This document shows, piece after piece, positions 5,281 through 54,867 of a stretch of 64,000 bases of DNA (position 1 is its first letter; the number at the start of each line of letters is the position of its first letter). Source of the DNA: Nitrospinota bacterium (GTDB taxonomy: Bacteria; JADFOP01). The stretch covers positions 20,691 through 84,690 of the forward strand of contig JADFOP010000001.1 of the NCBI GenBank assembly GCA_022562795.1, in the 5' to 3' direction. The notes below the pieces were generated by a model. That model searched no databases. It saw only the letters and a program-made list of their open reading frames with translations, and was not told where the DNA came from. The translations under genes and the position numbers were made by a program.

Positions 5281-6222
5281 TCACTCACGCAAAGACTGAA
5301 TATGGGGTTTTATAGCTTTTGAGAAGCGTTCCATAGTATCAATCATCGCATCCTGAATAGACACCCAACTGGTTTCGTCGTCTTTCAGGCCACCCTTTAG
5401 AATGAATGCCCGAATTCGCGAAGCACGCCTCTCGTCAAGGCGTTCCCAAAGGAGGGGACTACCAAAGTCTGCTTCTATCTCTTCCTTCTTAGAATGAAAG
5501 CGGTCAAAGATGCGTTTGTTCTGGTCGTTATCTCCCGTATCAATGTATAATTCGACAGCCGTCTTTTCCTTGAGCCAAACCCCATAGATAAAACTTAACC
5601 CGGCCTTGCCCGCCCCAGCGCTAATCCAATTGCCCGTACCCGGAGAAATGCTGGCATGAAGCGTAACACCCTTTTCTATTGCCCGGTCCAGGAGTTGTTT
5701 CCAAAATTGCTTGCGAAGTTTATGCCTTTCTGCGAGTTCCTTCTTATCTCCCCCTATTTCCTTTGCCTCTTCACTGGGAGCGACGATGACTGTGAAGAAA
5801 GGCGCTGGGAGGGAATCGCCAATACTATAAGCCGCCAAACGGACGAGGTAAAAAGCAATGTCTACTGGGGTCGCCTCGTTGAGCCATGCAACAGACCTAA
5901 TGTGCTCAGGACGTGGTTCACTCGTTATCCAGATGGCGGTCTTCGCTTCAAGGTTAGTAAGATAGGTCAGCACCTTTCCGAGATGGTCGTGATCTGTTCT
6001 TTCGAGTTGGTTCTCTATAATAACGAGATTTCCGTCACCATCCTCGGCGACGAGATCAACCTGAAACGGTCCAGCTTTCTTTCCTCGCTGCACTGCGGTG
6101 AGGGATATGTCCAGAACATCTTCTAGTGCATCAATATTGTTCTCTAGCCAAGCAGAAAAGTCGCGCTCCTCGTGCTTCCATAATTCACGTAGTTGAATAC
6201 TTTCGAGTTTGCCTATAGACAT
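5281..6222 (-). CDS. PD-(D/E)xK (NucS-like) endonuclease-fold domain + DUF4268 protein
   Basis: N-terminal VDLVAEDGDGNLVIIENQLERTD (D...E-x-Q/K nuclease-fold core); C-terminal W...ELYIDTGDNDQNKRIFD typical of DUF4268; low GC. Confidence 0.55.
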   Translation of the reverse strand: MSIGKLESIQLRELWKHEERDFSAWLENNIDALEDVLDISLTAVQRGKKAGPFQVDLVAEDGDGNLVIIENQLERTDHDHLGKVLTYLTNLEAKTAIWITSEPRPEHIRSVAWLNEATPVDIAFYLVRLAAYSIGDSLPAPFFTVIVAPSEEAKEIGGDKKELAERHKLRKQFWKQLLDRAIEKGVTLHASISPGTGNWISAGAGKAGLSFIYGVWLKEKTAVELYIDTGDNDQNKRIFDRFHSKKEEIEADFGSPLLWERLDERRASRIRAFILKGGLKDDETSWVSIQDAMIDTMERFSKAIKPHIQSLRE

Positions 6223-7135: not shown

Positions 7136-8143
7136 TTACACTTCTACGGGAGCGGAGGGCAGCAGGGCTCTAATAGCTGGGTGGGTCAGGTAGGGCCCGA
7201 AAGCCGACTCGCCGCCGATGGCGTCCCTCCGAGAGGGTTGCAGGCGGCAGGCCCGCTCGAGCGCCTCGGCCACCTCGATAGCTCCCGCCTCTGGGTCGGC
7301 GGCACGGCACAATGCCGCCAGCCACCAGGCTTCGGCGTCCCGTCCGTGAGTTGCGAGGTGGGGAGCGAGGATCGCCTCGGCCTCGGCTGGACGGCCAATC
7401 CTAACCAGGGCCACGGCGGCGTTTTTTAAGGCATCACCGTTGGTCCCATCGGAGGCCAGCACCTGCCGGAAGACCTCTAGGGCCTCTGCGTGACGGCCCA
7501 GCCGCCCTAGGGCCGCCCCCAGGTTCACCCTGGCGACGACCGAGGTCGGTCTCAGGATGGCAGCCCTGCGGTAAGTCTCGACGGCCGTCTCGAGCCGTCC
7601 CTCCTCGAAAGCGGAGTTAGCCTCGGCGAGCCACTGGTAGAACGTGTCGAGGCGGGCCTGGGTGGGATCGAAAAGCCGCGCCAGCCGCCGGATAATCCAC
7701 CCCTGGGGCTCCTCTCCAACGAGGGCGGCCTGCCCGTGTTTCTGCCAGAGGGACCAGCGCCACCGAAACAAGCGCCGCTGGATGGTTCCATCCCGGTAGA
7801 TGGCCAGGAGCATGATGAGCCCGGAGATGAACAACCCTAAGAGGTAGTGGAGGACCATCGTCCCCCAGCTGAGCTCTTCGTTGTAGGTGAGGGTTTCGGG
7901 CGTGGGTTGGGGTGGCGGAGGCGGCTGGAGGGGGCTAAAGAAGGCGTCCGCCACAAAGACGATGATGACCATCACGGCCAGGGCGGAGTAAACGAAACGG
8001 ATGAAGCCCCGATCGCCGGTCATCACAACCCCGAAAACGCCGTGGTAGCCAGCGTAGCCCCTGCGGGGATAGGTCATGGGAGCTCCCTTCTGCCTTGGCC
8101 GTGTGGACGCCTCCATCATAGTGGTCCGATGGACGAAAGGCAA
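7136..8143 (-). CDS. membrane-anchored TPR-repeat protein
   Basis: Two N-terminal TM helices, poly-Pro linker, C-terminal TPR-like Ala/Leu repeats (AEALEVFRQVLASDG...); start may be the internal MTYPRR. Confidence 0.5.
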   Translation of the reverse strand: MPFVHRTTMMEASTRPRQKGAPMTYPRRGYAGYHGVFGVVMTGDRGFIRFVYSALAVMVIIVFVADAFFSPLQPPPPPQPTPETLTYNEELSWGTMVLHYLLGLFISGLIMLLAIYRDGTIQRRLFRWRWSLWQKHGQAALVGEEPQGWIIRRLARLFDPTQARLDTFYQWLAEANSAFEEGRLETAVETYRRAAILRPTSVVARVNLGAALGRLGRHAEALEVFRQVLASDGTNGDALKNAAVALVRIGRPAEAEAILAPHLATHGRDAEAWWLAALCRAADPEAGAIEVAEALERACRLQPSRRDAIGGESAFGPYLTHPAIRALLPSAPVEV

Positions 8144-8238
8144 GGTCGGCTATTGGTCGCTCCAGGCAAAACCCCTTGACCTGCCCGGACGAGTGGGGTA
8201 GGCTTTGGCCCGTTGGCGCGGTAGCCTTACGCCCGTGC

Positions 8239-8311
8239 CACGGGGGAGGCCGGGGTAGCTCAGTCGGTAGAGCAGGGGACTGAAAATCCCCGTGTCGGCG
8301 GTTCGATTCCG
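8239..8311 (+). tRNA. tRNA-Phe (anticodon GAA)
   Basis: 73-nt cloverleaf: acceptor GCCGGGG/CCCCGGC, D-arm TAGCTCAGTCGGTAGAGCA, anticodon stem GGGGA/TCCCC with loop CTGAAAA, T-arm GGCGGTTCGATTCCGTC. Confidence 0.9.
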
Positions 8312-8449
8312 TCCCCCGGCACCTCGCTTATTTCCGGGATTACCTCTTGGGCAAAAATATTTTTGAAGCGGCGTCTCCGTCTAGCGGCGACCCGCCCCTG
8401 CCTCCGGCAATGGTTAACCCCATGAGGCATTTGTTTAAGTTAACATCGA

Positions 8450-9550
8450 ATGAGTTCCAGCATGGTGAAGAATAAACCCATCACTTACGAAGACGCAGGG
8501 GTCACAAGCGCTGATGCCTTGGCTCTTCTCCTGAAATCCCTCGATAAAGTCAGCGGATTGGGAGCGCCGCAGCGGTTGGATATAGGAACCTTCGCCAATG
8601 TTGTGGAGATCGGCCCGAATCTTGGGGTCGCGCTTGCCACCGACGGCGTTGGAACGAAAATCCTGATAGCGCAAATGATGGATAAATACGATACCATCGG
8701 GATCGACTGTGTCGCCATGAATGTCAACGACCTACTCTGTGTAGGCGCAACGCCTATCACCATGGTCGATTACCTGGCCGTTCAGGTTCCCCATGAAAGG
8801 CTATTGGAGGAGATAGGAATTGGTTTGGCCGAGGGCGCCAGACAAGCGAACATCAATATCTGCGGCGGCGAATTGGCGCAAATCAAGCCCATGATTGACG
8901 GTGTGAGGCCTGATTGGGGCTTCGACCTCGTTGGGACGGCTATTGGCCTCGTAAAGCTTGACGAAATAATCGCGGGCCATGCCATCCAAGATGGTGACAT
9001 TGTCCTCGGGATATCGAGCAACGGCTTACACTGCAACGGGTACTCGCTGGCCAGAAAGGTATTGCTCGAACGGCGGGGCTTGAAAGTAGACTCGTATGTT
9101 CCTGAATTGGGCGTCTCCCTTGGAGAGGAATTGTTGAAGGAGACGTTCATCTACGTGAGCGAAGTGGTCGAGGTTCTCCAATCGGATATACCCGTCAAAG
9201 GGCTCGCACATATTACAGGCGATGGATTCGGAAATCTTTCACGGTCAGCGACATCTATGGGGTTCGTTATTGATAATCTACCGGAAGAGCAGACCCACCC
9301 AATATTCCATGTAATCCGAGAAAGCGGCCCTGTGGAGCTTCATGAAATGTTTCAGGTCTTCAATATGGGTATTGGGTTTTGCGTCATCGTCTCTAAAGAT
9401 GACGTGTCTCGGGCTAAAACGATCCTCGCCATGTCAGGCCGTAATATCTCAGAGATCGGATACGTTGATAGCTCCTTATCCAAGGAAGTGAAAATAGAGC
9501 CCTTCGAAATAAAGTGGGATCATTCAAGCAAACGATTCTCCCCATTTTGA
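8450..9550 (+). CDS. purM: AIR synthase (PurM)-like protein
   Basis: YEDAGV...ATDGVGTKILIA...DTIGIDCVAMNVNDL...GLAHITGDGFGNL...FNMGIGFCVIV match PurM-superfamily N- and C-domains; lower GC than flanks. Confidence 0.65.
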   Translation: MSSSMVKNKPITYEDAGVTSADALALLLKSLDKVSGLGAPQRLDIGTFANVVEIGPNLGVALATDGVGTKILIAQMMDKYDTIGIDCVAMNVNDLLCVGATPITMVDYLAVQVPHERLLEEIGIGLAEGARQANINICGGELAQIKPMIDGVRPDWGFDLVGTAIGLVKLDEIIAGHAIQDGDIVLGISSNGLHCNGYSLARKVLLERRGLKVDSYVPELGVSLGEELLKETFIYVSEVVEVLQSDIPVKGLAHITGDGFGNLSRSATSMGFVIDNLPEEQTHPIFHVIRESGPVELHEMFQVFNMGIGFCVIVSKDDVSRAKTILAMSGRNISEIGYVDSSLSKEVKIEPFEIKWDHSSKRFSPF

Positions 9551-9603
9551 CACGTAGGATGAAACCATAGTAGCAGTAGGAACGAGGGTCGGTAGCGACT
9601 ATA

Positions 9604-9966
9604 ATGGTCGCCGATATGCCGAAGCCCCTTGGTCGCTGGTTGGTCGTTGCCCTCTACTGTGGGCTCATATTCTATCTCTCCTCCCTCCCTTCGGAGGAAC
9701 TTCCACTCCCTCCCCTATTTTGGTGGTCGGACAAGGTGCTTCACGCCCTGGAGTACGCCGTCTTGAGTTTCTTGCTCGGACGGGCGTTGGGAATTGAAGG
9801 AAGGAAGGGAGTGCTCATCGCAGTCGTCATAGCGTCCCTCTACGGACTCACCGACGAGTTTCATCAATCGTTCGTCCCCGGCCGCGACGCGACCGCAGGG
9901 GATTGGCTCGCCGATACTGTGGGGGCTGCGCTGGTTCACTGGCGGGGGGCCTGGAGGCGGGATTGA
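9604..9966 (+). CDS. VanZ-like family membrane protein
   Basis: KVLHALEYAVLSFLL...DEFHQSFVPGRDATAGDWLADTVGAALV typical VanZ core; 3 TM helices. Confidence 0.6.
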   Translation: MVADMPKPLGRWLVVALYCGLIFYLSSLPSEELPLPPLFWWSDKVLHALEYAVLSFLLGRALGIEGRKGVLIAVVIASLYGLTDEFHQSFVPGRDATAGDWLADTVGAALVHWRGAWRRD

Positions 9967-9994
9967 TGCTCGAGCAGAACTCCTCTCCTGCCTC

Positions 9995-10795
9995 TCAACC
10001 CTCTTCCGAGGGCCTTCGGCCGAGGCTGAGGACCTCCATCATGGCTTCGTGCAGCAGGTCGTTGGACGCCAAAATCTCTGATTTGTAGATGTCGAGGGGC
10101 TCGCCGTTGAAGGTGCTCACCCGGCCGCCTGCCTCCTCAACGAGGAGGGCTCCCGCAGCCACGTCCCAGGGCTTGAGCTTCAGCTCCCAGAAGCCGTCGT
10201 AGCGGCCGCTGGCCGTGTGGGCCAGATCGATGGCAGCTGCACCGGGCCGGCGGATTGCCAGCGCCCGCCGGGCGAAGTGCTCGAAGTGGTCGAGGTTGGT
10301 GACCGAGGCGGTGTGGATGTCGTAGGGAAATCCGGTCGCCAGGAACGCCTCGGCGAGCTCTGTCACATCGGAGACGCGGATCGCCTCGCCGTTCAAGAAA
10401 GCCCCGCCGCCGGAGGTGGCGGTGAAGGTCTCGCCGTGGACGGGATCCTCGATCACGCCGACAACGAGGGCCCCGTCCACCTCGAGGGCGATCGAGACGG
10501 CAAAGATGGGAATAGCGTGGGCGTAGTTGGTCGTCCCGTCGAGAGGATCGATTATCCAGCGCCTTGGGCGCTCGAGATGCTCAGGCGGGGCCTCTTCGGA
10601 GAGCAACCCATCGTCGCCGAATGCGCCCTGGAGGGCCTCGAAGATGAGCCGCTCCGAGGCGGTGTCCATCTCCGTGACGAGGTCGATTGCCCCCTTGTGG
10701 GTGGTGCGGACGGGTTGGCCGAAGTGCTTCATGAGAAGCCGGCCGGCGGCCTGGGCGGCCTCGACGGTCACCGCGAGCTCGCGCTGATATGGCAC
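9995..10795 (-). CDS. suhB: inositol monophosphatase family protein (SuhB)
   Basis: VTEMDTASE, WIIDPLDGTTNYAH, AAIDLAHTASGRYDGFWE, WDVAAGALLVEEAGG motifs. Confidence 0.85.
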   Translation of the reverse strand: MPYQRELAVTVEAAQAAGRLLMKHFGQPVRTTHKGAIDLVTEMDTASERLIFEALQGAFGDDGLLSEEAPPEHLERPRRWIIDPLDGTTNYAHAIPIFAVSIALEVDGALVVGVIEDPVHGETFTATSGGGAFLNGEAIRVSDVTELAEAFLATGFPYDIHTASVTNLDHFEHFARRALAIRRPGAAAIDLAHTASGRYDGFWELKLKPWDVAAGALLVEEAGGRVSTFNGEPLDIYKSEILASNDLLHEAMMEVLSLGRRPSEEG

Positions 10796-12052: not shown

Positions 12053-12907
12053 GTGCCAACTATCACAATCGGCCTCGGTCAGATTCAACCCACCCTGGGA
12101 GATGTGGAGAAGAATCGGGCCATCGTGCGCGATGTAATCGAGCGGGCGCGCGCCGCTGGGGTCGACCTCCTCGTGTTTCCCGAGCTGGCCCTGACCGGCT
12201 ACTTTCTAAAGGATATTGTCCCATACGCCGCCTGCACGAGGGATAGCCCCGCCCTGGCCGAGATCGCCGAGGCGAGCAACTCGATGGCCATCATCCTCGG
12301 CTACGTCGAAGAGGGCCCCCAGCACCTCTACTACAACGCCGCATCGCTGTTCGACGGCGGCCTCCCCGTCCACCACCATCGAAAGGTCTACCTGCCCACG
12401 TACGGTATGTTCGAAGAGCAGCGCTACTTCGCTCAGGGCGACCGCTTCCGTGCTGCCGATACCCGCTTCGGTCGCATGGGGCTTGCGCTGTGCGAAGACC
12501 TCTGGCACACCTCGGCGGCATATTGCCTCTGGCAGGACGGCGCCGACCTGCTGGTTATCCTAGCTTCTAGCCCGGGCCGGGGCATTACCGAGGCCGACCG
12601 CCTCACTATCACCGAGACCTGGGAGCGGCTCACCGCCAATTACGCTCAGATGTATTCCCAGGTCGTCATCTTCGTCAACCGAGTGGGCTACGAAGACGGC
12701 GTCAATTTCTGGGGCGGCTCGGAGGTTCTGGGGCCCGACGGCCGTCGGCTGCTCAAGGCTCCCTACTTCGAGGAGGCCTTTGTAACCTGCAAGGTGGACT
12801 TGGCAGAAATCCGCCGCCGCCGAATTATCGACACGACCCTGCGCGACGAGGACCTCTCCATTACCCTCCGAGAGCTTCAGCGAATCTTAGAGGCCCGCCA
12901 GCAATGA
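12053..12907 (+). CDS. carbon-nitrogen hydrolase (nitrilase-superfamily; likely glutaminase partner of NadE)
   Basis: [20 protein letters not shown] (Cys nucleophile) and E-K-C triad context; GTG start with GGAGG RBS; overlaps nadE start by 4 nt. Confidence 0.7.
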
Positions 12908-13752
12908 AGTCTACCTTTCAGACCCCGGCCTTGGAGTGGCTGAAGATCAACCCAGCCCTGGCCGAGACGATGCTCAACGGTTTTATCCGAGATGAGGTCA
13001 CCAAGATGAGCTTCTCCCGGGTGGTACTGGGGCTCTCGGGCGGGGTGGATTCGAGCCTCTGTGCCCTGCTCGCCGCCCGGGCCCTGGGCCCTGAGAACGT
13101 AACCGCCATCATGATGCCGTACAAGTCCTCGGCCCCAGAGAGCGTGGAGCACGCCCGGCAGGTCGTAAGCCAGTCGGGCATCCACTCCCTCCACATTGAG
13201 ATTACCCCCATGATCGATGCCTACTTCGAGAGCTGTCCCGATGCCGACCAGAACCGGCGGGGGAACAAAATGGCCCGCGAGCGCATGACCATCCTCTACG
13301 ACCACTCAGCCCTCCTGAAGGCTCTCGTTCTTGGCACCAGCAACAAGAGCGAGCTCCTGCTCGGCTACGGTACCCTTTACGGCGATATGGCCAGCGCCCT
13401 AAACCCCATCGGTGATCTTTACAAGAGCCAGGTCTGGCAGCTCGCCGAGTGGATGGGAGTGCCCGCCGAGGTCATCGGCAAGGCCCCCTCGGCCGACCTA
13501 TGGGTGGGCCAGACCGACGAGGGTGAGCTGGGCTTCGGCTACCCCGACGTGGACCAGCTTCTCTACTACCTGGTGGATAGACGCCACAGCCCCGAGGAGT
13601 GCGTGGAGGCAGGATTCCCTGATGACTTCGTCCGCCGCGTGGTGGGGATGGTCCAGGGTAGTCAGTTCAAGCGGCGCCCGCCCGTAATCGCTAAAATATC
13701 CGACCGGACAATCGAGGCCGACTTCCGCTACGCCCGCGACTGGGGGCGGTAG
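12904..13752 (+). CDS. nadE: NH3-dependent NAD+ synthetase
   Basis: PP-loop [33 protein letters not shown] motifs. Confidence 0.85.
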
Positions 13753-13850
13753 GGAGGCATAGCCGGCAAGTGGGGTATCGAAGAGCCTAAGGTCTAAAGC
13801 CGTTAAGCGCCCGTGTCTCCCTTTTTCCCATCATACATCGCCATTTTTTC

Positions 13851-13877
13851 CTTGAACAATATACTACATTGTAGTAT
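13851..13877 (+). promoter_or_regulatory. putative promoter/operator of the brnTA-like module (palindrome ATACTACATTGTAGTAT)
   Basis: TTGAAC then a perfect 7+7 palindrome overlapping a TAGTAT -10-like hexamer ~90 bp upstream of the toxin ATG. Confidence 0.25.
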
Positions 13878-13966
13878 CTTCTGAAAGTAGCTGAGCCCCA
13901 TCTCCGTCTAAGAGAGAGTCTAGTTATGATTCGACAAAGGTTGCGGATAACTCAGGAGTTGGGGAC

Positions 13967-14239
13967 ATGTTTATTGACTACCTCGAGTGGGACGAGGCGG
14001 TAGTAGGGAAGATAATCGCAGAACATCAAGTCGATCCAGAGGAGGTAGAAGAAGTCATCTGGGACAGCGATTTTCTGACAAGGCGTGTTGGGAAAAATAG
14101 GTTCATGATTTTGGGAAAGACCCTATCTGGTCGGCATTTGGTTATAATTCTAGATAGATTGAGAAAAGGTGATTTCAAGCCGGTAACGGCTCGAGAAATG
14201 ACCTCCAAAGAAAAGAAGTCATTTCGAAGGGCAAGGTGA
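13967..14239 (+). CDS. BrnT-like ribonuclease toxin (DUF497)
   Basis: EWDE...EEV.EVI.D......R...GKNRFMILGKTLSGRHLVIILDR..KGDFKPVTAREMTSKEKK matches DUF497/BrnT; toxin-first gene order like BrnTA. Confidence 0.65.
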   Translation: MFIDYLEWDEAVVGKIIAEHQVDPEEVEEVIWDSDFLTRRVGKNRFMILGKTLSGRHLVIILDRLRKGDFKPVTAREMTSKEKKSFRRAR

Positions 14240-14277
14240 TATCTTTTCCATAAGTCCAAACCGTGAGGGTACTTGCG

Positions 14278-14931
14278 ATGAGTCCTATAGAAAAAGGGAT
14301 GCCAAAACACCCCAAAGCTAAATTCCCCCCCGGAGAAGATGTAGAGTTTTTCGAGCGCTCGGACTTGTCTGACCTCATTGAGAAGGGTGAAGTAGTCAAC
14401 CTTCGTACAAGGAAAATTATCGAGCCATGTCCTCATTGTTCTGCTAAGCGGCTTAGAAAAAGAATTATAGATGTTCCGCTATACAACGACCAAATCGCCC
14501 TGCGGAAAATACGTGTTGTCTACTGTCCAAACTGCAAACGAAATTTTGTAGAAATTAGGGACTTTCAACGTTTTCTGGATCTTTTTAAGAGTGAGCTGGC
14601 TAAAATTGATGAAAGTTCATTACGAGAGCAACTGGAAGAGGGGATACGGCTTTTTGAGCAGCGGTGGAAAAGCAAGGTAAATCGGCGAAAAGTATTAACG
14701 TTCTATTTTCCATCGAAGACCACGGGAAAGCATAAGAATGCTCACGTATCTATAAGAACAACCGATCCTTTGGCTAAACCACTTGGGGCTGTAAATAGTG
14801 CGATGCTGAGAGATTTGCTAAGTATCCATAATTATGAAGATTTGCAGCGTGCAGCGGCCAAAGAGAATAGAACAATCAGTAAATTTATTAAATCTCGTCT
14901 ATCCTTCCTTGTTCAAGAAGTAGGGAGTTAG
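14278..14931 (+). CDS. BrnA-like antitoxin (COG3514) with inserted zinc-ribbon and C-terminal RHH-like tail
   Basis: N-terminal MPKHPKAKFPPGEDVEFFERSD as in COG3514; CPHC...CPNC zinc ribbon; C-terminal ENRTISKFIKSRL; GAGGGT RBS 7 nt upstream; low GC. Confidence 0.5.
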   Translation: MSPIEKGMPKHPKAKFPPGEDVEFFERSDLSDLIEKGEVVNLRTRKIIEPCPHCSAKRLRKRIIDVPLYNDQIALRKIRVVYCPNCKRNFVEIRDFQRFLDLFKSELAKIDESSLREQLEEGIRLFEQRWKSKVNRRKVLTFYFPSKTTGKHKNAHVSIRTTDPLAKPLGAVNSAMLRDLLSIHNYEDLQRAAAKENRTISKFIKSRLSFLVQEVGS

Positions 14932-14989
14932 TTGATTTCCGCCTCGCCGTCGGTGTGATATATTATTGGGCAAATCGGAGGAGTAGAGT

Positions 14990-15631
14990 TTGAGTAAGCT
15001 CGAGAGGCGCACCAGCACTCAATTTAGGTGGTGGGCGCCCCTATACGATGGCAACCCCCTCCAGTGGTTTCTCTTTCGACCCGCTCACGGCCTGGTGATG
15101 CGGGAGATCGAGTCGCTCGGGCGCTCCGACCTTGCTGTGCTCGATGTGGGTTGCGGCACGGGTGTGCTGCTTAGGAGCCTCAAGGACGCATTCCCAAAAA
15201 GCGTCGTCTGGGGCCTTGACCTTTCTCCCCACATGCTGGCCCGGGCGGTGCCCAAGAGGATCGACCACGACCCCTTTCACGTTACCCGCGGCGATAGCGA
15301 ATTTCTGCCCTTCGCCGAAGGGAGCTTCGATGTCGTGGTCTGCTCCAATTCCTTCCACCATTACCCCCGCCAGGGGAAGGTGGTAAATGAGATGGCTCGC
15401 GTGCTCAAGCCCGGCGGAATTGCGTGCGTCGTTGACGGCTCCATAGACGGACCGCTGGGCAAACTCATCTTCCGCGGAATTGTCGAGACTGTGGAGAGGA
15501 ACGTGCACCACTGCTCGAAGCCCGAATTCGCGGAGCTCTTTCAACGGGCCGGCTTCAGGGGCATCCGCCACACCTCCATCTTCCGGGGTCTGCCCTTAGT
15601 AATGACGATAGGCGTCTCCAACACCCCGTGA
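14990..15631 (+). CDS. class I SAM-dependent methyltransferase
   Basis: VLDVGCGTGVL motif I, LKPGGIACVVD motif. Confidence 0.7.
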   Translation: MSKLERRTSTQFRWWAPLYDGNPLQWFLFRPAHGLVMREIESLGRSDLAVLDVGCGTGVLLRSLKDAFPKSVVWGLDLSPHMLARAVPKRIDHDPFHVTRGDSEFLPFAEGSFDVVVCSNSFHHYPRQGKVVNEMARVLKPGGIACVVDGSIDGPLGKLIFRGIVETVERNVHHCSKPEFAELFQRAGFRGIRHTSIFRGLPLVMTIGVSNTP

Positions 15632-17085: not shown

Positions 17086-17820
17086 CTACTCTATCCTTTC
17101 AGCCAAATGGCAAATGCGATCGATCAATTCCCCTATACCAAGGATTTTTGGGTTTTCGCTAGTTATATCAACCCAATGATACCGGTCGTCTTTTTCTTTG
17201 TAGATAGCGGCTGCGACAAAATTGTTATATTCCGTCATTCCCTCCAACTTGGCAACGATATGTTCTAGACGATCGGCGCTTGCTAGTCGCATCATCCATC
17301 CACTAAAAAATAGTGGGAAGGTTTCCTCGACGAATTCTCCCCACCCGCCCTCGGTTTCTGGGTTTACATACCTTTTCAAGTCGACGGGCGTGTACTTTAC
17401 CTCTTTCACCCTCTTGTCGATATCGATCGATATCGTTCGCTCTGGTTTTAGTTCTTCCCCGCTACGATGTTCTGGGCTTCCAATCATCTTTAATTCCCCC
17501 GCGATTACTACGGCATCGGCGCTTACATTCCGGCCTGCGCGGGCATCGACCGTGAGGGTGATGTCGACCGTATGGATATCCGTTCGACCAGAGACACGAC
17601 GCTCGGTAAGCTGGACGCCACATCTCGACTCTGCCAAAGCTGCTATTGTATCCTTGAAGGCGTTACCCTTTTGTCTGTACTTGCCTTCTGGTACGAGTCC
17701 GCCCTTCCTCAAGCTGTCGAGCTCTTGAATTACCCTCAATAGATCATCCCTCACGTCTTCCCACGAGAGATGCTCAGCGATAATTCTTGCGCTCAGGTTA
17801 TTCCATCTTGTGAAGGGCAT
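17086..17820 (-). CDS. putative Type II restriction endonuclease (PD-(D/E)xK)
   Basis: TDIHTVDITLTV...VVIAGELKMIG gives a D...(D/E)xK core; directly downstream and co-oriented with a DNA MTase; low GC. Confidence 0.45.
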   Translation of the reverse strand: MPFTRWNNLSARIIAEHLSWEDVRDDLLRVIQELDSLRKGGLVPEGKYRQKGNAFKDTIAALAESRCGVQLTERRVSGRTDIHTVDITLTVDARAGRNVSADAVVIAGELKMIGSPEHRSGEELKPERTISIDIDKRVKEVKYTPVDLKRYVNPETEGGWGEFVEETFPLFFSGWMMRLASADRLEHIVAKLEGMTEYNNFVAAAIYKEKDDRYHWVDITSENPKILGIGELIDRICHLAERIE

Positions 17821-17833
17821 TCTAGGTGTTGTT

Positions 17834-18799
17834 CTATGTAGAGGAGACGACCCTGAGGGCCGCAGAGGAGAACAGTCCGCTGGTCTTGGAGCTCAGCCTC
17901 TTGTGCGCATGATCAAGGTAAGAGGGATGAATTTCAAATCCTATGCTGTTTCTGCCCCACTTTGCCGCAGCCAGATTCGTCGTTCCCGTCCCCATGAAGG
18001 GGTCGACCACCGTATCGCCGGCGAAGCTGAACATGCGCACCAATCGCCCAGCTAAATCTAAGGGGAACGGTGCGGGATGATTTCTCGTTGATTCTCCAGG
18101 AATTGTCCAGATTTGCTGAAACCATTCTCGGTGGTTTTCTTCCGAGATGACGCTTAGGAGTCTGGCAGCCACCGAAGGCCTACGGTAACCCCCTGGCTTT
18201 CGCTGCATGAGAATATACTCAATATCATTCTTAATGATCGCGTTGGGCTCGTAAGGTTTCCCGAGAAATCGAGAGCCATTTTCAACCTCGTATTGAGCGT
18301 TCGTGATCTTGTACCATATGATGGGTGCTAGGTTATCGAAGCCCAGGCCTCGACACTGCTCTTGAATTGAGGCGTGAAGTGGAACGACCATATGTCGTCC
18401 GTGTTTGCGGCGGGACAGGCATACATCGCCTACAACGATTACCAAACGTCCTCCTTTGACGAGGATGCGGAAACAATGCTTCCAAATGGGCAGCAACGAT
18501 TCGAGAAACAATTCGTAATCAGTGATAGACCCAAGTTGCCCACGACGAGATGGGTACTCTTTGAGGTTCCAGTAAGGCGGGGACGTTACGACGAGATGGG
18601 TGCTTTCGTTGTCTATAATATCCATTTCTCGGGCGTCACGAAGATACAGTGTATGAGTCGTTGAAAGGTGGGATATTGCAGATTGAATGGATTGGATAGC
18701 TTGGGGGTTTTTGGCTATCTTGGGTATATCCGTTTGGGGATTCTTGAGATTGGCTAGTTCTGGCGAAAGATGCTCACGAAGCAGATCGTCCAGATTCAT
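17834..18799 (-). CDS. DNA methyltransferase, beta class (SPPY motif IV; N4-cytosine or N6-adenine)
   Basis: VVTSPPYWN (motif IV) before DPFMGTGTT (motif I), the beta-class order; low GC. Confidence 0.8.
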   Translation of the reverse strand: MNLDDLLREHLSPELANLKNPQTDIPKIAKNPQAIQSIQSAISHLSTTHTLYLRDAREMDIIDNESTHLVVTSPPYWNLKEYPSRRGQLGSITDYELFLESLLPIWKHCFRILVKGGRLVIVVGDVCLSRRKHGRHMVVPLHASIQEQCRGLGFDNLAPIIWYKITNAQYEVENGSRFLGKPYEPNAIIKNDIEYILMQRKPGGYRRPSVAARLLSVISEENHREWFQQIWTIPGESTRNHPAPFPLDLAGRLVRMFSFAGDTVVDPFMGTGTTNLAAAKWGRNSIGFEIHPSYLDHAHKRLSSKTSGLFSSAALRVVSST

Positions 18800-40009: not shown

Positions 40010-40818
40010 ACCTCGCAGGCCACCCCTGTGCTCTCTTGACACCAACCGGCTATGGCGTCGAGACGGTCCCTAGGGACTATCTTTAGTTGAGTGTCGGCGG
40101 GAATACGGTCCAGCGTGTAAAGCTGGACGGCGAGGGGACGAATCTGCTCCACCTTATCAATCCAGGCGGCAACAATATCGTCGGTGGTGTTGTCGACCCG
40201 CCCCTGGACGAACATGCTCTGCACTATGCAGTCGGTCAGGCCGGAAATGTGGGCGATCATCCGTTGGAGGTCGAAGGGACGGTGGGGTAGATTGACAGCT
40301 TGGATGGTCTCCGGGTCGCCGGCGTCAAGCTTCACCTGCCTTTCATCCAGGCGATTGAGCGCCTCGAGGACTTCGGGGCGATGGATGGTCGAGGCACTGG
40401 TGAGTATCGAGAGCTTTACCTCCGGCGCCAGGCGGTCTCGGACGGCGGCCACAACGTCAACGAGCTCGGAGAACTCGGGGTGGAGGGTCGGCTCGCCGTT
40501 GCCCGCAAAGGTGAGGCTGTCGATGCGCGTTCCGTCGGCCGCCAGCCCCTCGAGGGCGTCTTCCAGGGCCGCACCGACCGCCTCGACGGTCGGGAAGAGC
40601 TCGGCCGGAGCCTCACCGACATCGCCCACGTAGAATCCTGTCCAGCCAAACTGGCAGTAGGGACAATTAAAGGAGCATAGTTTGACGTCGAGCGGCAGGG
40701 GGTTAATGCCCAGCGAGGCCCCCAAGCGCCGGGAACGCACGGGCCCGTAGATCAAGGTGGGAAAGAGGTTCCTCTGAATTAGAGAGGAGCCCTGTTGGGC
40801 CGGAAACCTTGGGTCCAT
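40003..40818 (-). CDS. radical SAM protein (COG0731-like)
   Basis: CSFNCPYC (Cx3Cx2C) preceded by YGPVRSRRLGASLGINPLP. Confidence 0.7.
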   Translation of the reverse strand: MDPRFPAQQGSSLIQRNLFPTLIYGPVRSRRLGASLGINPLPLDVKLCSFNCPYCQFGWTGFYVGDVGEAPAELFPTVEAVGAALEDALEGLAADGTRIDSLTFAGNGEPTLHPEFSELVDVVAAVRDRLAPEVKLSILTSASTIHRPEVLEALNRLDERQVKLDAGDPETIQAVNLPHRPFDLQRMIAHISGLTDCIVQSMFVQGRVDNTTDDIVAAWIDKVEQIRPLAVQLYTLDRIPADTQLKIVPRDRLDAIAGWCQESTGVACEVY

Positions 40819-41365
40819 AGGTGCCTACTCCCATTCCACGCAGATAGTGCCATCCATCTTACACGACTGGCATCTGATTCAAAGGGTAATTATCCCACCA
40901 AAATAATCAAGATGAGAAGGGCTTTTTCCTCTCGATCCTTGATTTTTCCAATTAGGCTCCCATATTGGAATAGAATACATAACGTTGTTTTAGCAGCAAA
41001 CCAATAAGGTGTTAAGTTATGAAGAGTTACGAGGAATGTTTTGGTACGCAGACCCCACATGCGCTCCGCTTCTCTGATGGGGCCTGCATCGTGGTCTGGG
41101 CTCCCAATGACGAGCTCAGCGACCTGTCGAGCCTTGATAAGCTGGGCCAAAAGTGTCTCATGTGCAAAGATGAATACTTGTGTTTCGAGCTCTCGCGTTG
41201 CCGAGACTTCATGACGCGGCAAGAAGTGCAGGTAGCTTAAGACGTACCGCAACTTTTCTCTCTCCATAGCTCCTTTTCCTTCAATTCCATCGCAGTAAAG
41301 CACAGATTTTGGTATAATACTCTCATTCTCATCAGCCGCTCTAACTGTCAGGTCTTCCCAGGCAT

Positions 41366-41941
41366 GTGTCGCGGGGACCAACGATGGCCTCTATTTTGGG
41401 TTCAGTGCTTTTCTATCTTATTGTTACCGTGGCTCTGCTGATCATGATCCTGTACGTCCTCCCCGTGGCAGGCGCCTTCTTCTTCACCGGCGGGAGCACC
41501 TTCGTTCCTACAAGCAAGCAAAAGATTGAGAAGGTCCTGGACCTTGTTCCCATGGCCCCAGGGGCGTTGGTGATTGATTTGGGATGTGGCGACGGGCGAT
41601 TTCTCTTGGCAGCCGAGCGGCGCTACGATGTGGAGGCCGTAGGGTATGATATTAATTTGACGGCCTACCTCCTCGCCCGGCTGAACATCCTGTTGCATCG
41701 AGCTCGGGCGCGTGTTTACCTCAAGAACTTTCGAAAAGTAGACCTGGGCCAGGCTGATTACATCTTCTGCTACCTCTTTCCCGACGTGCTTCCAGCCCTG
41801 AAGCGTAAATTTGACGCAGAGCTGAAGGCCGGTTGTGTGGTGGTCTCTTGTGACTACCTAATTGAGGAATGGAGGGAGCCGGAGGTCGTCTCCTACCCGG
41901 TGAATAACAAAGAGGAAAAGATATACATCTATCGCGTTTGA
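41366..41941 (+). CDS. membrane-anchored class I SAM-dependent methyltransferase
   Basis: N-terminal TM helix; VIDLGCGDGRF motif I. Confidence 0.55.
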   Translation: MSRGPTMASILGSVLFYLIVTVALLIMILYVLPVAGAFFFTGGSTFVPTSKQKIEKVLDLVPMAPGALVIDLGCGDGRFLLAAERRYDVEAVGYDINLTAYLLARLNILLHRARARVYLKNFRKVDLGQADYIFCYLFPDVLPALKRKFDAELKAGCVVVSCDYLIEEWREPEVVSYPVNNKEEKIYIYRV

Positions 41942-42219
41942 GAGTCCGAGCTGGAGTTGGCGAGGGTGGAATTGGGAGGCTCACGGACCTCAAGAAGCTT
42001 GTTAGGAGGGCCGTAACTCATTGGTCCAGGTGGTGGGAAACCCTTCCGAGTTTCCCCTCATGCCAACGCCTCCATGCGTAATTCGTCGTATTCGTCCAGT
42101 AATAAAATAGTAATCTGGGTGGTCGGAGGCAGCCCCAAAGCGCCGGATACTTTATAATCCATTGAATATCTTAACGTTAGAAAGAGTACGAAACATAAAA
42201 CAACTTTTTATAATTTCCC

Positions 42220-52597: not shown

Positions 52598-53059
52598 TCA
52601 GTCGAAGAGGCGGGCCCTCAGCAAGGCAAGATTTTCTACGTCCTCGCGGTTGTACTGCAGGAGCATCGCCAGTGCCTCTTCCTCGCCCCTCTCCATGTAG
52701 GCAGCCCACAGGCGCATGGCGTCCAGTCCGTTGAGGTCGGGAAGGGAGCGGCGAATCCCGAGCTTGCGTTCCACCGCTTTGAGGCCTCCGTATAGGTCAC
52801 GACGCCAGCATTCGTACATGAGGTCGCGGCACGGCACCAGTCGCCGCAGATTGAGCCCAAGGCGTCGATGAATGAAGGGCAGGTCGAAACGGTGGCCATT
52901 GTAGGTGTAGAGAGCCTGGGCGCCTGAGAGCGACTCCAGCAGCTCCGCGGGATTTATGGCAGGGTTTACCCATTGGGCCAGACCGCCGGACGGCCGTAAC
53001 AGGCCGATGACTGTTATCACCCCCTCGTAGGAGGTCTCAATGTCCAGGTAGGCTGGCAT
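52598..53059 (-). CDS. RNase H-like 3'-5' exonuclease domain protein (YprB/PF13482-like)
   Basis: YLDIETS, YNGHRFDLPFI, QYNREDVENL DEDDy-type motifs. Confidence 0.6.
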   Translation of the reverse strand: MPAYLDIETSYEGVITVIGLLRPSGGLAQWVNPAINPAELLESLSGAQALYTYNGHRFDLPFIHRRLGLNLRRLVPCRDLMYECWRRDLYGGLKAVERKLGIRRSLPDLNGLDAMRLWAAYMERGEEEALAMLLQYNREDVENLALLRARLFD

Positions 53060-53063
53060 GGGC

Positions 53064-53672
53064 CTACTTTTTCTTTTTCGGCTTCTTCGGCGGTTCTATT
53101 TGACGAACTTGTTCGTTGGCCTCGATGAGCCGCTCCATGGTTTCATGAGAAGCGGCTCTTAAACCGTCGCGGATGGCCAAAAGCACCAGACGGCCAGCCA
53201 CCGTCTGCACCCCAGGGATATTAGGCAACGATGAGAGCTCATTCTCGTCCATGGCAGCTGATTGCTCGACAATGGCCTTCGTCTCGTAGAGTTCGGAGTC
53301 CTCGTAGCGATACTTGAGCTTAACGTAGTCGCGCTCCTTCACCTCATCGTCGCCCACCTCACGAACGATGTTTTCCTTGTCGATGGCGAACGGCTTCTTC
53401 CCCCGCCGCCCCATGAGCTTTTTGACTTCCTTGAAGTAAGCGTCGAGCGTCATCGCACCCGACAGCTCATCTTGAGGAATCTTGGAGCTAATCTCGAATT
53501 CGATCTCGCCTTGCCCGACACTGGGAGGACCGATTTCGTACGTTATGCCCTTGTAGTTGAAACGGTCGCCCTTTTTAACTTGAAACTTGCTTCGAAACGT
53601 AGCGATCGTCTCGTTGACCCCCATCAGGGCGTACTCTTTAAAGACCTGGTCTCGTAGCGTTGCCATCGTCAC
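53064..53672 (-). CDS. hypothetical protein with poly-Lys C-terminal tail (lower GC)
   Basis: 202-aa ORF ending PPKKPKKKK; no catalytic motif recognised. Confidence 0.45.
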   Translation of the reverse strand: MTMATLRDQVFKEYALMGVNETIATFRSKFQVKKGDRFNYKGITYEIGPPSVGQGEIEFEISSKIPQDELSGAMTLDAYFKEVKKLMGRRGKKPFAIDKENIVREVGDDEVKERDYVKLKYRYEDSELYETKAIVEQSAAMDENELSSLPNIPGVQTVAGRLVLLAIRDGLRAASHETMERLIEANEQVRQIEPPKKPKKKK

Positions 53673-54208
53673 CCTTTCTTGTGAGAAGGTGGTTCGTCCA
53701 CCGGGAGAGAGATGTCAGTGTGTTGGGGTTCCATAAGGCGCTAAAATTGTATAGAAGGAGGTCGGTGATGTCAAACTACCCGGCAGGGCAGGGCTAAATG
53801 ACTACGAGCGCTTTTCACGCCGAACAGGCGAAGCCCGCCTCCTCCGCTTCGCTGCTCCAATAGCCCCACTCGTCAGGCCCGAAGGCTTTCAACCATGTTT
53901 ATATAGTCAGGCTTATCTTTGCCTCCCAGGTGGATATTTCCATCCCCTGTCCCCCGGTACACAATGCTCTCAGAGACTCAAGAATGTGACGATTTAAAAA
54001 CAAATATTCAAAAAGGGTTGACTTTACCCCTGAAATCATGTAAGATAGGGTTATATTGAGGTTAAGAAAATGTAAACACGGACAGACGACGGGGGTCGGG
54101 CAGTTGAGGGAACTATGGAAGCCCTATCCTCGTCAAAGGGTGCGTAATCTGCCAGCAAAGGCGTAATTTGTTATAACCTCGCGGACATCGAATAGGGAGT
54201 GACGATCT

Positions 54209-54793
54209 ATGACTCGGTCTGTGAAAGAAGAGATTCTGGCTCTTAATATCGGCTCAAAAATTAAACACCTGCGGAAGGACCGGCAGTTCACGCTACAAGA
54301 CCTCTCGGGTAAGACGGGGTTGTCCAAACCGCTGCTTTCCCAAGTAGAGAATAGCCTGGTCATTCCTCCATTGCCTACCCTTCTTAAGATTTCCACCGCT
54401 CTCAGGGTTCCGATGACGCACTTCATCAAAGATGATGAAGAGAGGATTATTGTGACCCGTGGTAACGATGTGAACTCGGCCCCCAAGCGGCTCGTCGAGG
54501 GGCGCGACCCCACCAACTGCATCTACTCAAGCCTGGTCAAAGGCAAGGCAAACAAAAAGATGGAGCCGCTATATGTGGAATTTTCTCAAGTGGCTAAAGC
54601 TAAAGTGGCCCCCCTTTCCCACCACGGGGACGAGTTCGTCCATGTGCTTGAAGGCAAGCTCGAAGTGACCTACGAGGGCGAGGTGGTGGTGCTGGACGCA
54701 GGCGACAGTCTCTACCTGGACGCGCGCATTCCGCACTCCTACCGGTCTTTGACCAAGAAGCGGACCCGGGCCATAATGGTCGTTACCGAATAA
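54209..54793 (+). CDS. XRE-family HTH transcriptional regulator with C-terminal cupin domain
   Basis: HTH QDLSGKTGLSKPLLSQVENS; cupin motif HHGDEFVHVLEGKL...GDSLYLDARIPH. Confidence 0.8.
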   Translation: MTRSVKEEILALNIGSKIKHLRKDRQFTLQDLSGKTGLSKPLLSQVENSLVIPPLPTLLKISTALRVPMTHFIKDDEERIIVTRGNDVNSAPKRLVEGRDPTNCIYSSLVKGKANKKMEPLYVEFSQVAKAKVAPLSHHGDEFVHVLEGKLEVTYEGEVVVLDAGDSLYLDARIPHSYRSLTKKRTRAIMVVTE

Positions 54794-54867
54794 CCACGGC
54801 GCTCTGGGGTTGCCTCATGGGGGGCGGAAGGGATCCCGCCTAACTCCAATTTTCGAGCAAGTAAGCA

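Follow-up and report, generated by a model that had tools for sequence, protein, structure and literature searches.

Antitoxins are known to diversify when families exchange their DNA-binding and toxin-binding modules. Two described systems come closest to the locus considered here, a pair of small genes from a Nitrospinota bacterium that lies in a stretch of 64,000 nucleotides (nt) of contig JADFOP010000001.1 (assembly GCA_022562795.1, positions 20,691 to 84,690 of the forward strand; the whole stretch is referred to as the window and is numbered from its first letter). In the BrnT/BrnA module of Brucella abortus, a PF04365 toxin is paired with an antitoxin of the PF12441/BrnA family (Heaton et al. 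2012, summarised in PMC5086665), and the ribonuclease (RNase) activity of the toxin needs residues D6, E7, K9, R41 and E78 (reviewed in PMC5086665). In MqsA, the antitoxin of the E. coli MqsR/MqsA pair (PDB 3ga8, 3gn5 and 3hi2; PMC2791442), a zinc domain with the structural zinc ligands C3, C6, C37 and C40 binds the toxin, and a C-terminal domain binds DNA (PMC2791442). The gene pair of the window is most probably a type II toxin-antitoxin module of the BrnT family and, as such, of a known kind; its antitoxin, which combines BrnA, MqsA-N and atypical ribbon-helix-helix (RHH) parts, is rare and was previously unannotated.

The two open reading frames (ORFs) show the layout of type II toxin-antitoxin systems: they are small, adjacent and co-oriented, each is preceded by a Shine-Dalgarno site, 38 nt separate them, and a palindrome lies within their own promoter. 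As in the Brucella system, the toxin gene comes first and encodes a toxin of the DUF497/BrnT fold, and autorepression at the own promoter would be expected by the same likeness; the toxin gene also stands ahead of the antitoxin gene in MqsR/MqsA. The favoured explanation, to which we give a probability of roughly three in four, is a chromosomal module of the BrnT/BrnA kind, toxin gene first, in which the ORF2 protein serves both as antitoxin and as repressor.

ORF1, or brnT (13967..14239, plus strand), encodes a BrnT/DUF497 toxin of 90 amino acids (aa), a putative RNase; an AGGAG Shine-Dalgarno sequence can be read 8 nt ahead of its ATG (13954..13958, plus strand). The protein matches PF04365 (BrnT_toxin) over the entire profile (positions 1-77 of 77; E 7.4e-10) with 39.4 bits, above the gathering score of 34.5, and PF04365 is likewise matched by all 14 members of the assembled ORF1 subfamily. 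An earlier note, made from the letters of the window alone, had proposed a DUF497/BrnT-like toxin at this place, a claim that was to fall if the first ORF had no DUF497 match; the match exists, and NCBI lists a 100% identical protein (MCH6567485.1, from Nitrospinota/Nitrospinae metagenome-assembled genomes) as 'BrnT family toxin'. Searches of the PDB with ORF1 as a single sequence and with its subfamily profile gave no match; the catalytic residues were mapped by aligning 3u97 and 7vd7, the family members with solved structures, to the subfamily, their sequences having been retrieved with a consensus-like DUF497 bait. Four of the five residues needed in Brucella are kept in ORF1 (D6 as D9, E7 as E10, R41 as R45 and E78 as E82). 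The ratio of nonsynonymous to synonymous substitutions (dN/dS) is 0.07-0.16 for the toxin and antitoxin genes alike, in comparisons with relatives whose synonymous sites are near saturation. Judged from these sequence comparisons, ORF1 and ORF2 are real genes under purifying selection, and the low dN/dS indicates that ORF1 is an intact gene under selection rather than a relic. A minus-strand ORF (14026-14436, 136 aa) was rejected: it has neither homologue nor family support and arises mechanically from the AT-richness of the DNA, and the plus-strand genes account for the conservation.

ORF2 (14278..14931, plus strand) encodes the putative antitoxin, a protein of 217 aa that profile comparisons identify as a BrnA/MqsA-N/RHH chimera. 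Its Shine-Dalgarno sequence, GAGGG (14265..14269, plus strand), stands 8 nt ahead of the ATG and is also found in L002, a closely related locus; a GTG at 14263 would extend the protein to 222 aa, and the homologues and the NCBI call (MCH6567484.1, 'hypothetical protein') use the ATG. Relatives are few: a word-indexed search of 5.8 billion proteins returned four clusters, and exhaustive profile searching with HMMER, over 1.84 billion representative proteins, returned 41 matches with E <=1e-3, 12 of them with E <=1e-30. A canonical BrnA bait, by contrast, yielded at least 8000 clusters, made up of PF12441 proteins of 88-100 aa. The 41 matches fall into four groups: short full-length forms of 215-247 aa, to which the window protein belongs, long forms of ~340-360 aa with an additional C-terminal domain, N-half-only proteins of 77-126 aa and C-module-only proteins of 76-136 aa.

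Canonical BrnA is compact (~90-100 aa), its N-terminal motif being directly followed by a strand and the RHH part. ORF2 shares with it the acidic N-terminal motif of the 'EExEFW..HD.TDY' type and the C-terminal RHH helices, and since both of its ends align to BrnA profiles, it is BrnA-like with a large internal insertion; these alignments make it a homologue of BrnA that has gained two segments. The first comprises ~90 residues, an MqsA-fold zinc domain and a long helix, after the N-terminal motif, and the second, within the RHH part, comprises the two short helices (~20 residues). An AlphaFold model (model 2, built on a 39-sequence alignment) has a mean predicted local distance difference test (pLDDT) score of 83.8 and is confident from residue 28 on, with values <50 confined to residues 1-27. 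Its N-terminal part contains a short helix (31-36), strands 60-68, 73-83 and 88-90, and helices 93-106 and 112-134.

The BrnA-type motif occupies residues 11-35 (14308..14382, plus strand). When the first 50 residues of the family were compared by hhalign with 25 canonical PF12441 BrnA proteins, this segment aligned to BrnA residues 6-30, the motif 'EEREFWATHDSTDYID', with a probability of 83.2% and E 8.8e-6. The window protein itself carries a degenerate form of it, ..EDVEFFERSDLSDLIE, and distant family members have a near-canonical one, e.g. "EEEAAFWDTTDTSELL". ORF2 compared directly with PF12441 gives no match at E up to 1; sub-threshold matches are found in 6 of 39 relatives, the best with 22.9 bits (cutoff 28) and 1.5e-4. 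Residues 11-35 are predicted to be the peptide that contacts the toxin.

The zinc domain (residues 49-106; 14422..14595, plus strand) consists of two long strands and a helix and is of the MqsA-N type, standing, as in MqsA, N-terminal to the DNA-binding domain. Its four cysteines, C51 and C54 in CPHC (51-54) and C83 and C86 in CPNC (83-86), are invariant or nearly so across the family. In a comparison of the family profile with the PDB sequences, the top four matches were all MqsA (3ga8, 3hi2, 3gn5 and 2kz8; E 3.9e-4 to 1.1e-3), with both CxxC pairs aligned to the C3/C6 and C37/C40 pairs of MqsA, and a Foldseek search with the ORF2 model, which is independent of the profile, also placed 3ga8 at the top (probability 0.94). 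PF15731 is matched below threshold by 16 of 39 family members; ORF2 itself scores 14.4 bits with PF15731 (threshold 30) and 18.3 with TIGR03830 (threshold 61.8), and its MqsA-family matches reach only profile positions 2-69 of 131. Unlike MqsA, ORF2 has an extra BrnA-type peptide in front of the zinc domain, a DNA-binding domain of the RHH rather than the HTH-XRE type, and BrnT instead of MqsR as partner. The long connecting helix that follows (residues 112-134; 14611..14679, plus strand; pLDDT ~90 in model 2) is possibly a dimerisation element.

The DNA-binding module comprises residues 137-216 (14686..14925, plus strand). Residues 186-214 align to the RHH helices 58-86 of the same BrnA proteins (hhalign, probability 74.6%, E 2.7e-5). 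In the AlphaFold model a beta-hairpin (137-145/152-160) is followed by four helices (166-171, 174-181, 186-195 and 200-216), such that a two-stranded antiparallel ribbon sits on a four-helix scaffold and is closed within one chain; the prediction is that of a monomer. Taken at face value, the model, in which the module has an RHH2-like fold, predicts a single-chain RHH pseudo-dimer. The best structural match of the module is pArc, an engineered, permuted Arc repressor in a single chain (PDB 1u9p), at 8-9% sequence identity. In pArc, the work of Tabtiang and colleagues from 2005, the DNA-contacting strands are reportedly joined by a hairpin, with the four helices in tandem; the elements of the ORF2 model come in this same order. 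To our knowledge, this non-cyclically rearranged single-chain RHH topology (strand-strand-helix x4) has been described only for the engineered pArc. The ORF2 module would differ from the man-made protein in being natural, its fold being a predicted one; that it is a natural counterpart of the pArc fold is a tentative proposal, held at slightly less than even odds. Natural single-chain double-RHH proteins are represented by TraY, DndE, MJ0366 and the WYL1 and CasDinG N-domains (PMC10853773, PMC2954204, PMC10450177). As in these, one chain of the ORF2 model provides both ribbon strands, which could make recognition of an asymmetric half-site possible; the natural proteins are built from tandem strand-helix-helix repeats, the ORF2 model from adjacent hairpin strands and then four helices. 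Equally tentative is the broader picture of ORF2 as a three-way chimera, in which the BrnA-type peptide and the zinc domain of MqsA type would be two different toxin-binding devices, one after the other, and a single-chain RHH would allow one chain to serve each asymmetric half-site of the palindrome.

The same toxin-antitoxin system could operate with a more ordinary DNA-binding part: the C-module would then form an RHH homodimer through strand 152-160, strand 137-145 and the short helices would be accessory, and the pArc-like fold would be an artefact of monomer prediction. A colinear alignment of the module with BrnA, weak at a probability of 9%, places strand 1 (YFP..) against BrnA "VVFPNL" and strand 2 against "TKTISLRL", with a 20-residue insertion before the helix pair; it suggests that the first strand is already present in canonical BrnA, which nevertheless has only two helices. 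RHH_5 matches span residues 186-205 only, and the palindrome is symmetric, as for ordinary RHH dimers-of-dimers. The weakness of this alignment counts against the favoured reading, as does the fact that the single-chain fold was read from AlphaFold monomer models built on only 5-39 sequences. With the hairpin closing the ribbon in the model and the structural match to pArc on the other side, an ordinary homodimer appears rather unlikely, although less so than the two further alternatives considered below.

These comparisons also settle what the earlier note had said of ORF2. It had recognised a COG3514/BrnA-like N-terminus, which holds in the profile-profile comparison if not in a direct Pfam match. 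It had further noticed an internal insert of ~100 aa with CPHC...CPNC: the insert and its cysteines are there, and in place of a generic zinc ribbon they form an MqsA-N-type domain followed by a long helix. What it took for an RHH-like C-terminal tail is RHH-like, but amounts to a module of 80 residues, predicted to fold as a complete RHH pseudo-dimer from a single chain.

The leader that separates brnT from the nadE stop codon (13753..13966, plus strand), a low-GC intergenic segment, contains the promoter and the putative operator. The inferred -35 element is TTGAAC (13852..13857, plus strand; TTGACA in most relatives) and the inferred -10 element, 17 nt past it, is TATCTT (13875..13880, plus strand; relatives have TATATT or TATCCT). 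The palindrome, ATACTACA-T-TGTAGTAT (13861..13877; core CTACA-T-TGTAG), fills the spacer between them with its 17 nt and overlaps the -10 element. It occurs once only in the 64 kb and gave 0 matches in 100 shuffles. In an alignment of the intergenic sequence with three related loci (L001, L002 and L004), all of which have TATATT as their -10 element, the palindrome block is the only conserved part: TATACTACA[T/A]TGTAGTAT is invariant and lengthens in L001 and L004 to a perfect palindrome of 21 nt. TTGAC[AT] is found at the -35 position in 19 related loci, and the layout TTGAC[AT]-N6-CTAC-N3-GTAG-TA[TG]xxT in all long-form loci with a readable promoter (L028-L045). Most of the latter (e.g. L031 at ~2600-2650) have a second overlapping palindrome, TATCCTACA-N-TATAGGATA; the centres of their two palindromes, (T)AACCTACATTGTAG and TATCCTACATTATAGGATA, are 15 bp apart, and the window, like L001 and L004, has only the first. 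By its position in the promoter spacer and its conservation across the family, the palindrome is the putative operator of the toxin-antitoxin promoter, in agreement with the autoregulatory role first suggested for it. It is not a widespread signal: the exact 19-mer TATACTACAWTGTAGTATA has 20 matches in 185,579 GTDB genomes (L005-L024), from Chloroflexia, Gemmatimonadota, Cyanobacteria and others among many phyla, and these are treated as chance matches, since ~4-10 are estimated to arise by chance in 596 Gb and no BrnT or ORF2 relative was found near the sites.

These parts could act together in the following manner: The N-terminal half of ORF2 (BrnA motif and zinc domain, residues ~11-106) would bind and neutralise BrnT. 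The C-module would reach into the major groove with its two-stranded beta-ribbon and there contact the CTACA and TGTAG half-sites, the centres of which are ~11 bp apart, a spacing comparable to that of the Arc operator. Two modules bound side by side at this distance would occlude RNA polymerase, because the palindrome lies within the -35/-10 spacer, and the operon would be autorepressed. Loss or degradation of the antitoxin would then free BrnT and derepress the operon.

Relatives of the locus dissect the antitoxin into its parts. The antitoxin is 57% identical to ORF2 in L001 and 55% in L004, and the toxin of both loci is 74% identical to ORF1; a further 20 metagenome loci, found through the antitoxin with a narrow alignment, all belong to the long-form clade and are ~30% identical to ORF2. 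Among the full-length loci with readable upstream sequence, an intact BrnT gene lies directly upstream in 20. N-half-only antitoxins (P0020, P0022), which have the motif and the zinc domain without the DNA-binding module, are encoded directly after BrnT in three loci (L048, L049 and, as an uncalled ORF at 1422-1688, L027); these have neither promoter nor palindrome, and BrnT begins ~20-30 nt past the upstream gene. C-module-only proteins (P0023, P0031) are found without BrnT. The stand-alone modules of ~82-89 aa (L026, 355-603; L052, 2501-2770; L053, 156-425; L054, 133-402) precede a gene for a radical-SAM-like protein (~490-534 aa), which is followed by an HATPase_c_3 gene, and their promoters read TTGACA-TG-CCCCACAATGTGGTG-TATCTA, with a palindrome CCACA-A-TGTGG at the matching spacer position. 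Across these two kinds of loci, the C-module goes together with the operator, and the N-half with BrnT. The halves of ORF2 thereby appear to have the same polarity as those of MqsA, the toxin end being N-terminal and the DNA end C-terminal, and by its gene contexts the C-module looks like a portable autorepressor cassette that is used in unrelated operons as well.

In four more full-length loci the toxin gene is deleted, truncated or split and the antitoxin is intact. L002 is 96.5% identical to the window and lacks, by blastn, positions 13889..14232, by which brnT is gone but for its last 7 nt; the palindrome and the antitoxin gene (97% protein identity) are kept. In L025 only the last ~35 brnT codons are left, behind an operator-like TATACTAtATTGTAGTtAT, L038 has a truncated fragment of the toxin gene, and in L046 the toxin gene is split. 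Loss of the toxin with retention of the antitoxin is the asymmetry that a toxin-antitoxin pair predicts; since the antitoxin served as the bait in collecting these loci, a toxin that had lost its antitoxin could not have shown up among them.

Repeated loss of the toxin may also be taken to mean that the module is decaying, with an inactive toxin and with ORF2 surviving only as a transcription factor, and the toxin of the window does lack an equivalent of Brucella K9. Its ORF is intact, however, and encodes an identical protein in 14 contigs, D9, E10, R45 and E82 are kept, and the dN/dS values are low, which leaves a non-functional remnant very improbable, the least likely of the explanations weighed here.

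Several observations nevertheless weigh against a BrnT/BrnA-type module with ORF2 as antitoxin and repressor. The residue that corresponds to K9 is V12 in ORF1 and is hydrophobic in all 14 subfamily members, and in a distant clade the equivalent of D6 is replaced by K; to judge from these substitutions, the catalytic mechanism may differ from that of Brucella BrnT. ORF2 is below every threshold in Pfam, NCBIfam and PADLOC, and its links to BrnA and MqsA come from family profiles with E 1e-4 to 1e-5; in its N-terminal motif EFFERSDLSD is found where the canonical form has EFWATHDSTD. The -35 and -10 hexamers are imperfect, sigma-70-type rules are assumed for Nitrospinota, and a promoter scanner chose another, weak -35/-10 pair. 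Finally, one N-half-only protein, P0025 (L050, 455-796; L051, 126-467), has no detectable BrnT upstream and has a TTGACT..TATATT-like promoter of its own.

The long-form clade raises the question of a role in defence. Its antitoxins (L028-L047; P0005, P0008-P0012, P0015) end in an extra domain of ~140 aa with the conserved pattern ..LAA.S..F.G.L.YDY..L.L.V.KDD.G.. and no Pfam match, and the antitoxin gene is followed on the same strand, with anything between an overlap of 14 nt and a gap of 19 nt, by a gene for a protein of ~780 aa (L032, 4076-6418; L028, 2120-4459; L033, 1244-3358; L036, 2607-3377). This protein is a fusion of a Lon-protease-like part (PF05362, E 6.9e-8; BrxL C-terminal region, E 3.5e-7) and an RNase HIII region (TIGR00716, 191.9 bits; cutoff 161.2). 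Its orthologues, with identities of 57%, 48% and 38%, are found in this position in loci where the surrounding DNA can no longer be aligned; L038, L040 and the window have no such fusion gene. The long-form clade may represent a three-gene system, of which the window has the minimal two-gene form.

The module could be primarily an anti-phage (abortive-infection) device, or be left over from a larger defence system, with the zinc domain as a sensor. The extra domain and the closely following fusion gene, retained at 38-57% identity in part amid flanks that do not align, would fit such a role, as would a probable restriction-modification islet 2 kb from the module; the zinc site of MqsA is described as tuning MqsA proteolysis (PMC8808172). 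The locus of the window has neither the extra domain nor the third gene, however, no known defence-system model in PADLOC fits ORF1 or ORF2, and tblastn searches of plasmid and phage collections gave no relatives. A primarily anti-phage function is improbable on this balance, if not as improbable as decay, and would not exclude the toxin-antitoxin mechanism.

The islet just mentioned is a second low-GC segment (~0.48-0.50; 17086-18799, minus strand) 2 kb downstream of the module. It encodes an N6/N4 DNA methylase (17834-18799; PF01555, E 8.5e-38), adjoining a protein of 243 aa without family match (17086-17820), and is probably a small restriction-modification pair.

The module occupies a low-GC stretch (13753-14989) between nadE (12904-13752; PF02540, E 8e-81) and a gene for a class I S-adenosylmethionine (SAM)-dependent methyltransferase (14990-15631, with a TTG start at 14990 and a GGAGG site). 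The GC content is 0.41-0.47 across ~13750-14950 and 0.60-0.69 on either side; by gene, it is 0.426 for the toxin and antitoxin genes, 0.629 for nadE and 0.607 for the methyltransferase gene, which bears out the low-GC insert of ~1.2 kb between these neighbours that had been pointed out at the start. The slot after the nadE stop codon also holds the module in L001 and L004. With a GC content of 0.43, as against ~0.62-0.65 for the host, the module resembles the distant long-form loci (0.42-0.45 for the whole locus), which fits acquisition from a low-GC lineage; by composition, it was probably acquired from a low-GC donor. A scan of the GTDB representative genomes with a degenerate pattern revealed no relatives of the module, and since none were found in the plasmid and phage collections either, nothing points to a plasmid or a phage as its carrier. 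Of the insertion markers sought (tRNA, Rfam element, convincing flanking repeat), none was found at the module; Rfam had no match in 13600-15100, and the sole tRNA of the window is 5 kb away. A 15-nt direct repeat with 80% match, GACTTCCGCTACGCC in the 3' end of nadE (13720-13734) and GATTTCCGCCTCGCC just past the ORF2 stop codon (14934-14948), was considered as an insertion scar and could be the remnant of a target site; as it is no better than a dozen chance repeats of the region, nothing is claimed for it. On the plus strand past the antitoxin gene (14932-14989), no terminator-like site was found, so that the methyltransferase gene could be read through from the toxin-antitoxin promoter.

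Other stretches of reduced GC content (0.50-0.57 in 1-kb bins) are present in the window at 5281-6222 (minus strand), 8000-10000, 40800-42000 and 53000-54800. They contain a DUF4268 protein (5281-6222, minus strand), a tRNA-Phe (8249-8323) beside an AIR-synthase-related gene (8450-9550), a methyltransferase (41366-41941) and an HTH_3 plus cupin regulator (54209-54793), together with several more ORFs without family match.

For toxin-antitoxin biology, the locus is a clear natural case of module shuffling: one protein of 217 aa unites parts from antitoxin types that had been described separately (BrnA, MqsA and RHH repressors). The N-half-only, C-module-only and toxin-less loci serve as natural 'deletion mutants' that assign functions to the parts of ORF2 and make its domain logic testable, and comparison by itself defines the operator unusually well. 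A family so far listed as 'hypothetical' can be named as that of a BrnT-associated antitoxin, and its operator can be recognised by the pattern TTGACA-N6-CTAC-N3-GTAG-TAxxxT. If the RHH part is indeed a hairpin with four helices, nature would have arrived at the rearrangement that engineers designed in pArc, and such a module would read an asymmetric half-site as a compact monomer, with a bearing on the evolution of the fold and on repressor design.

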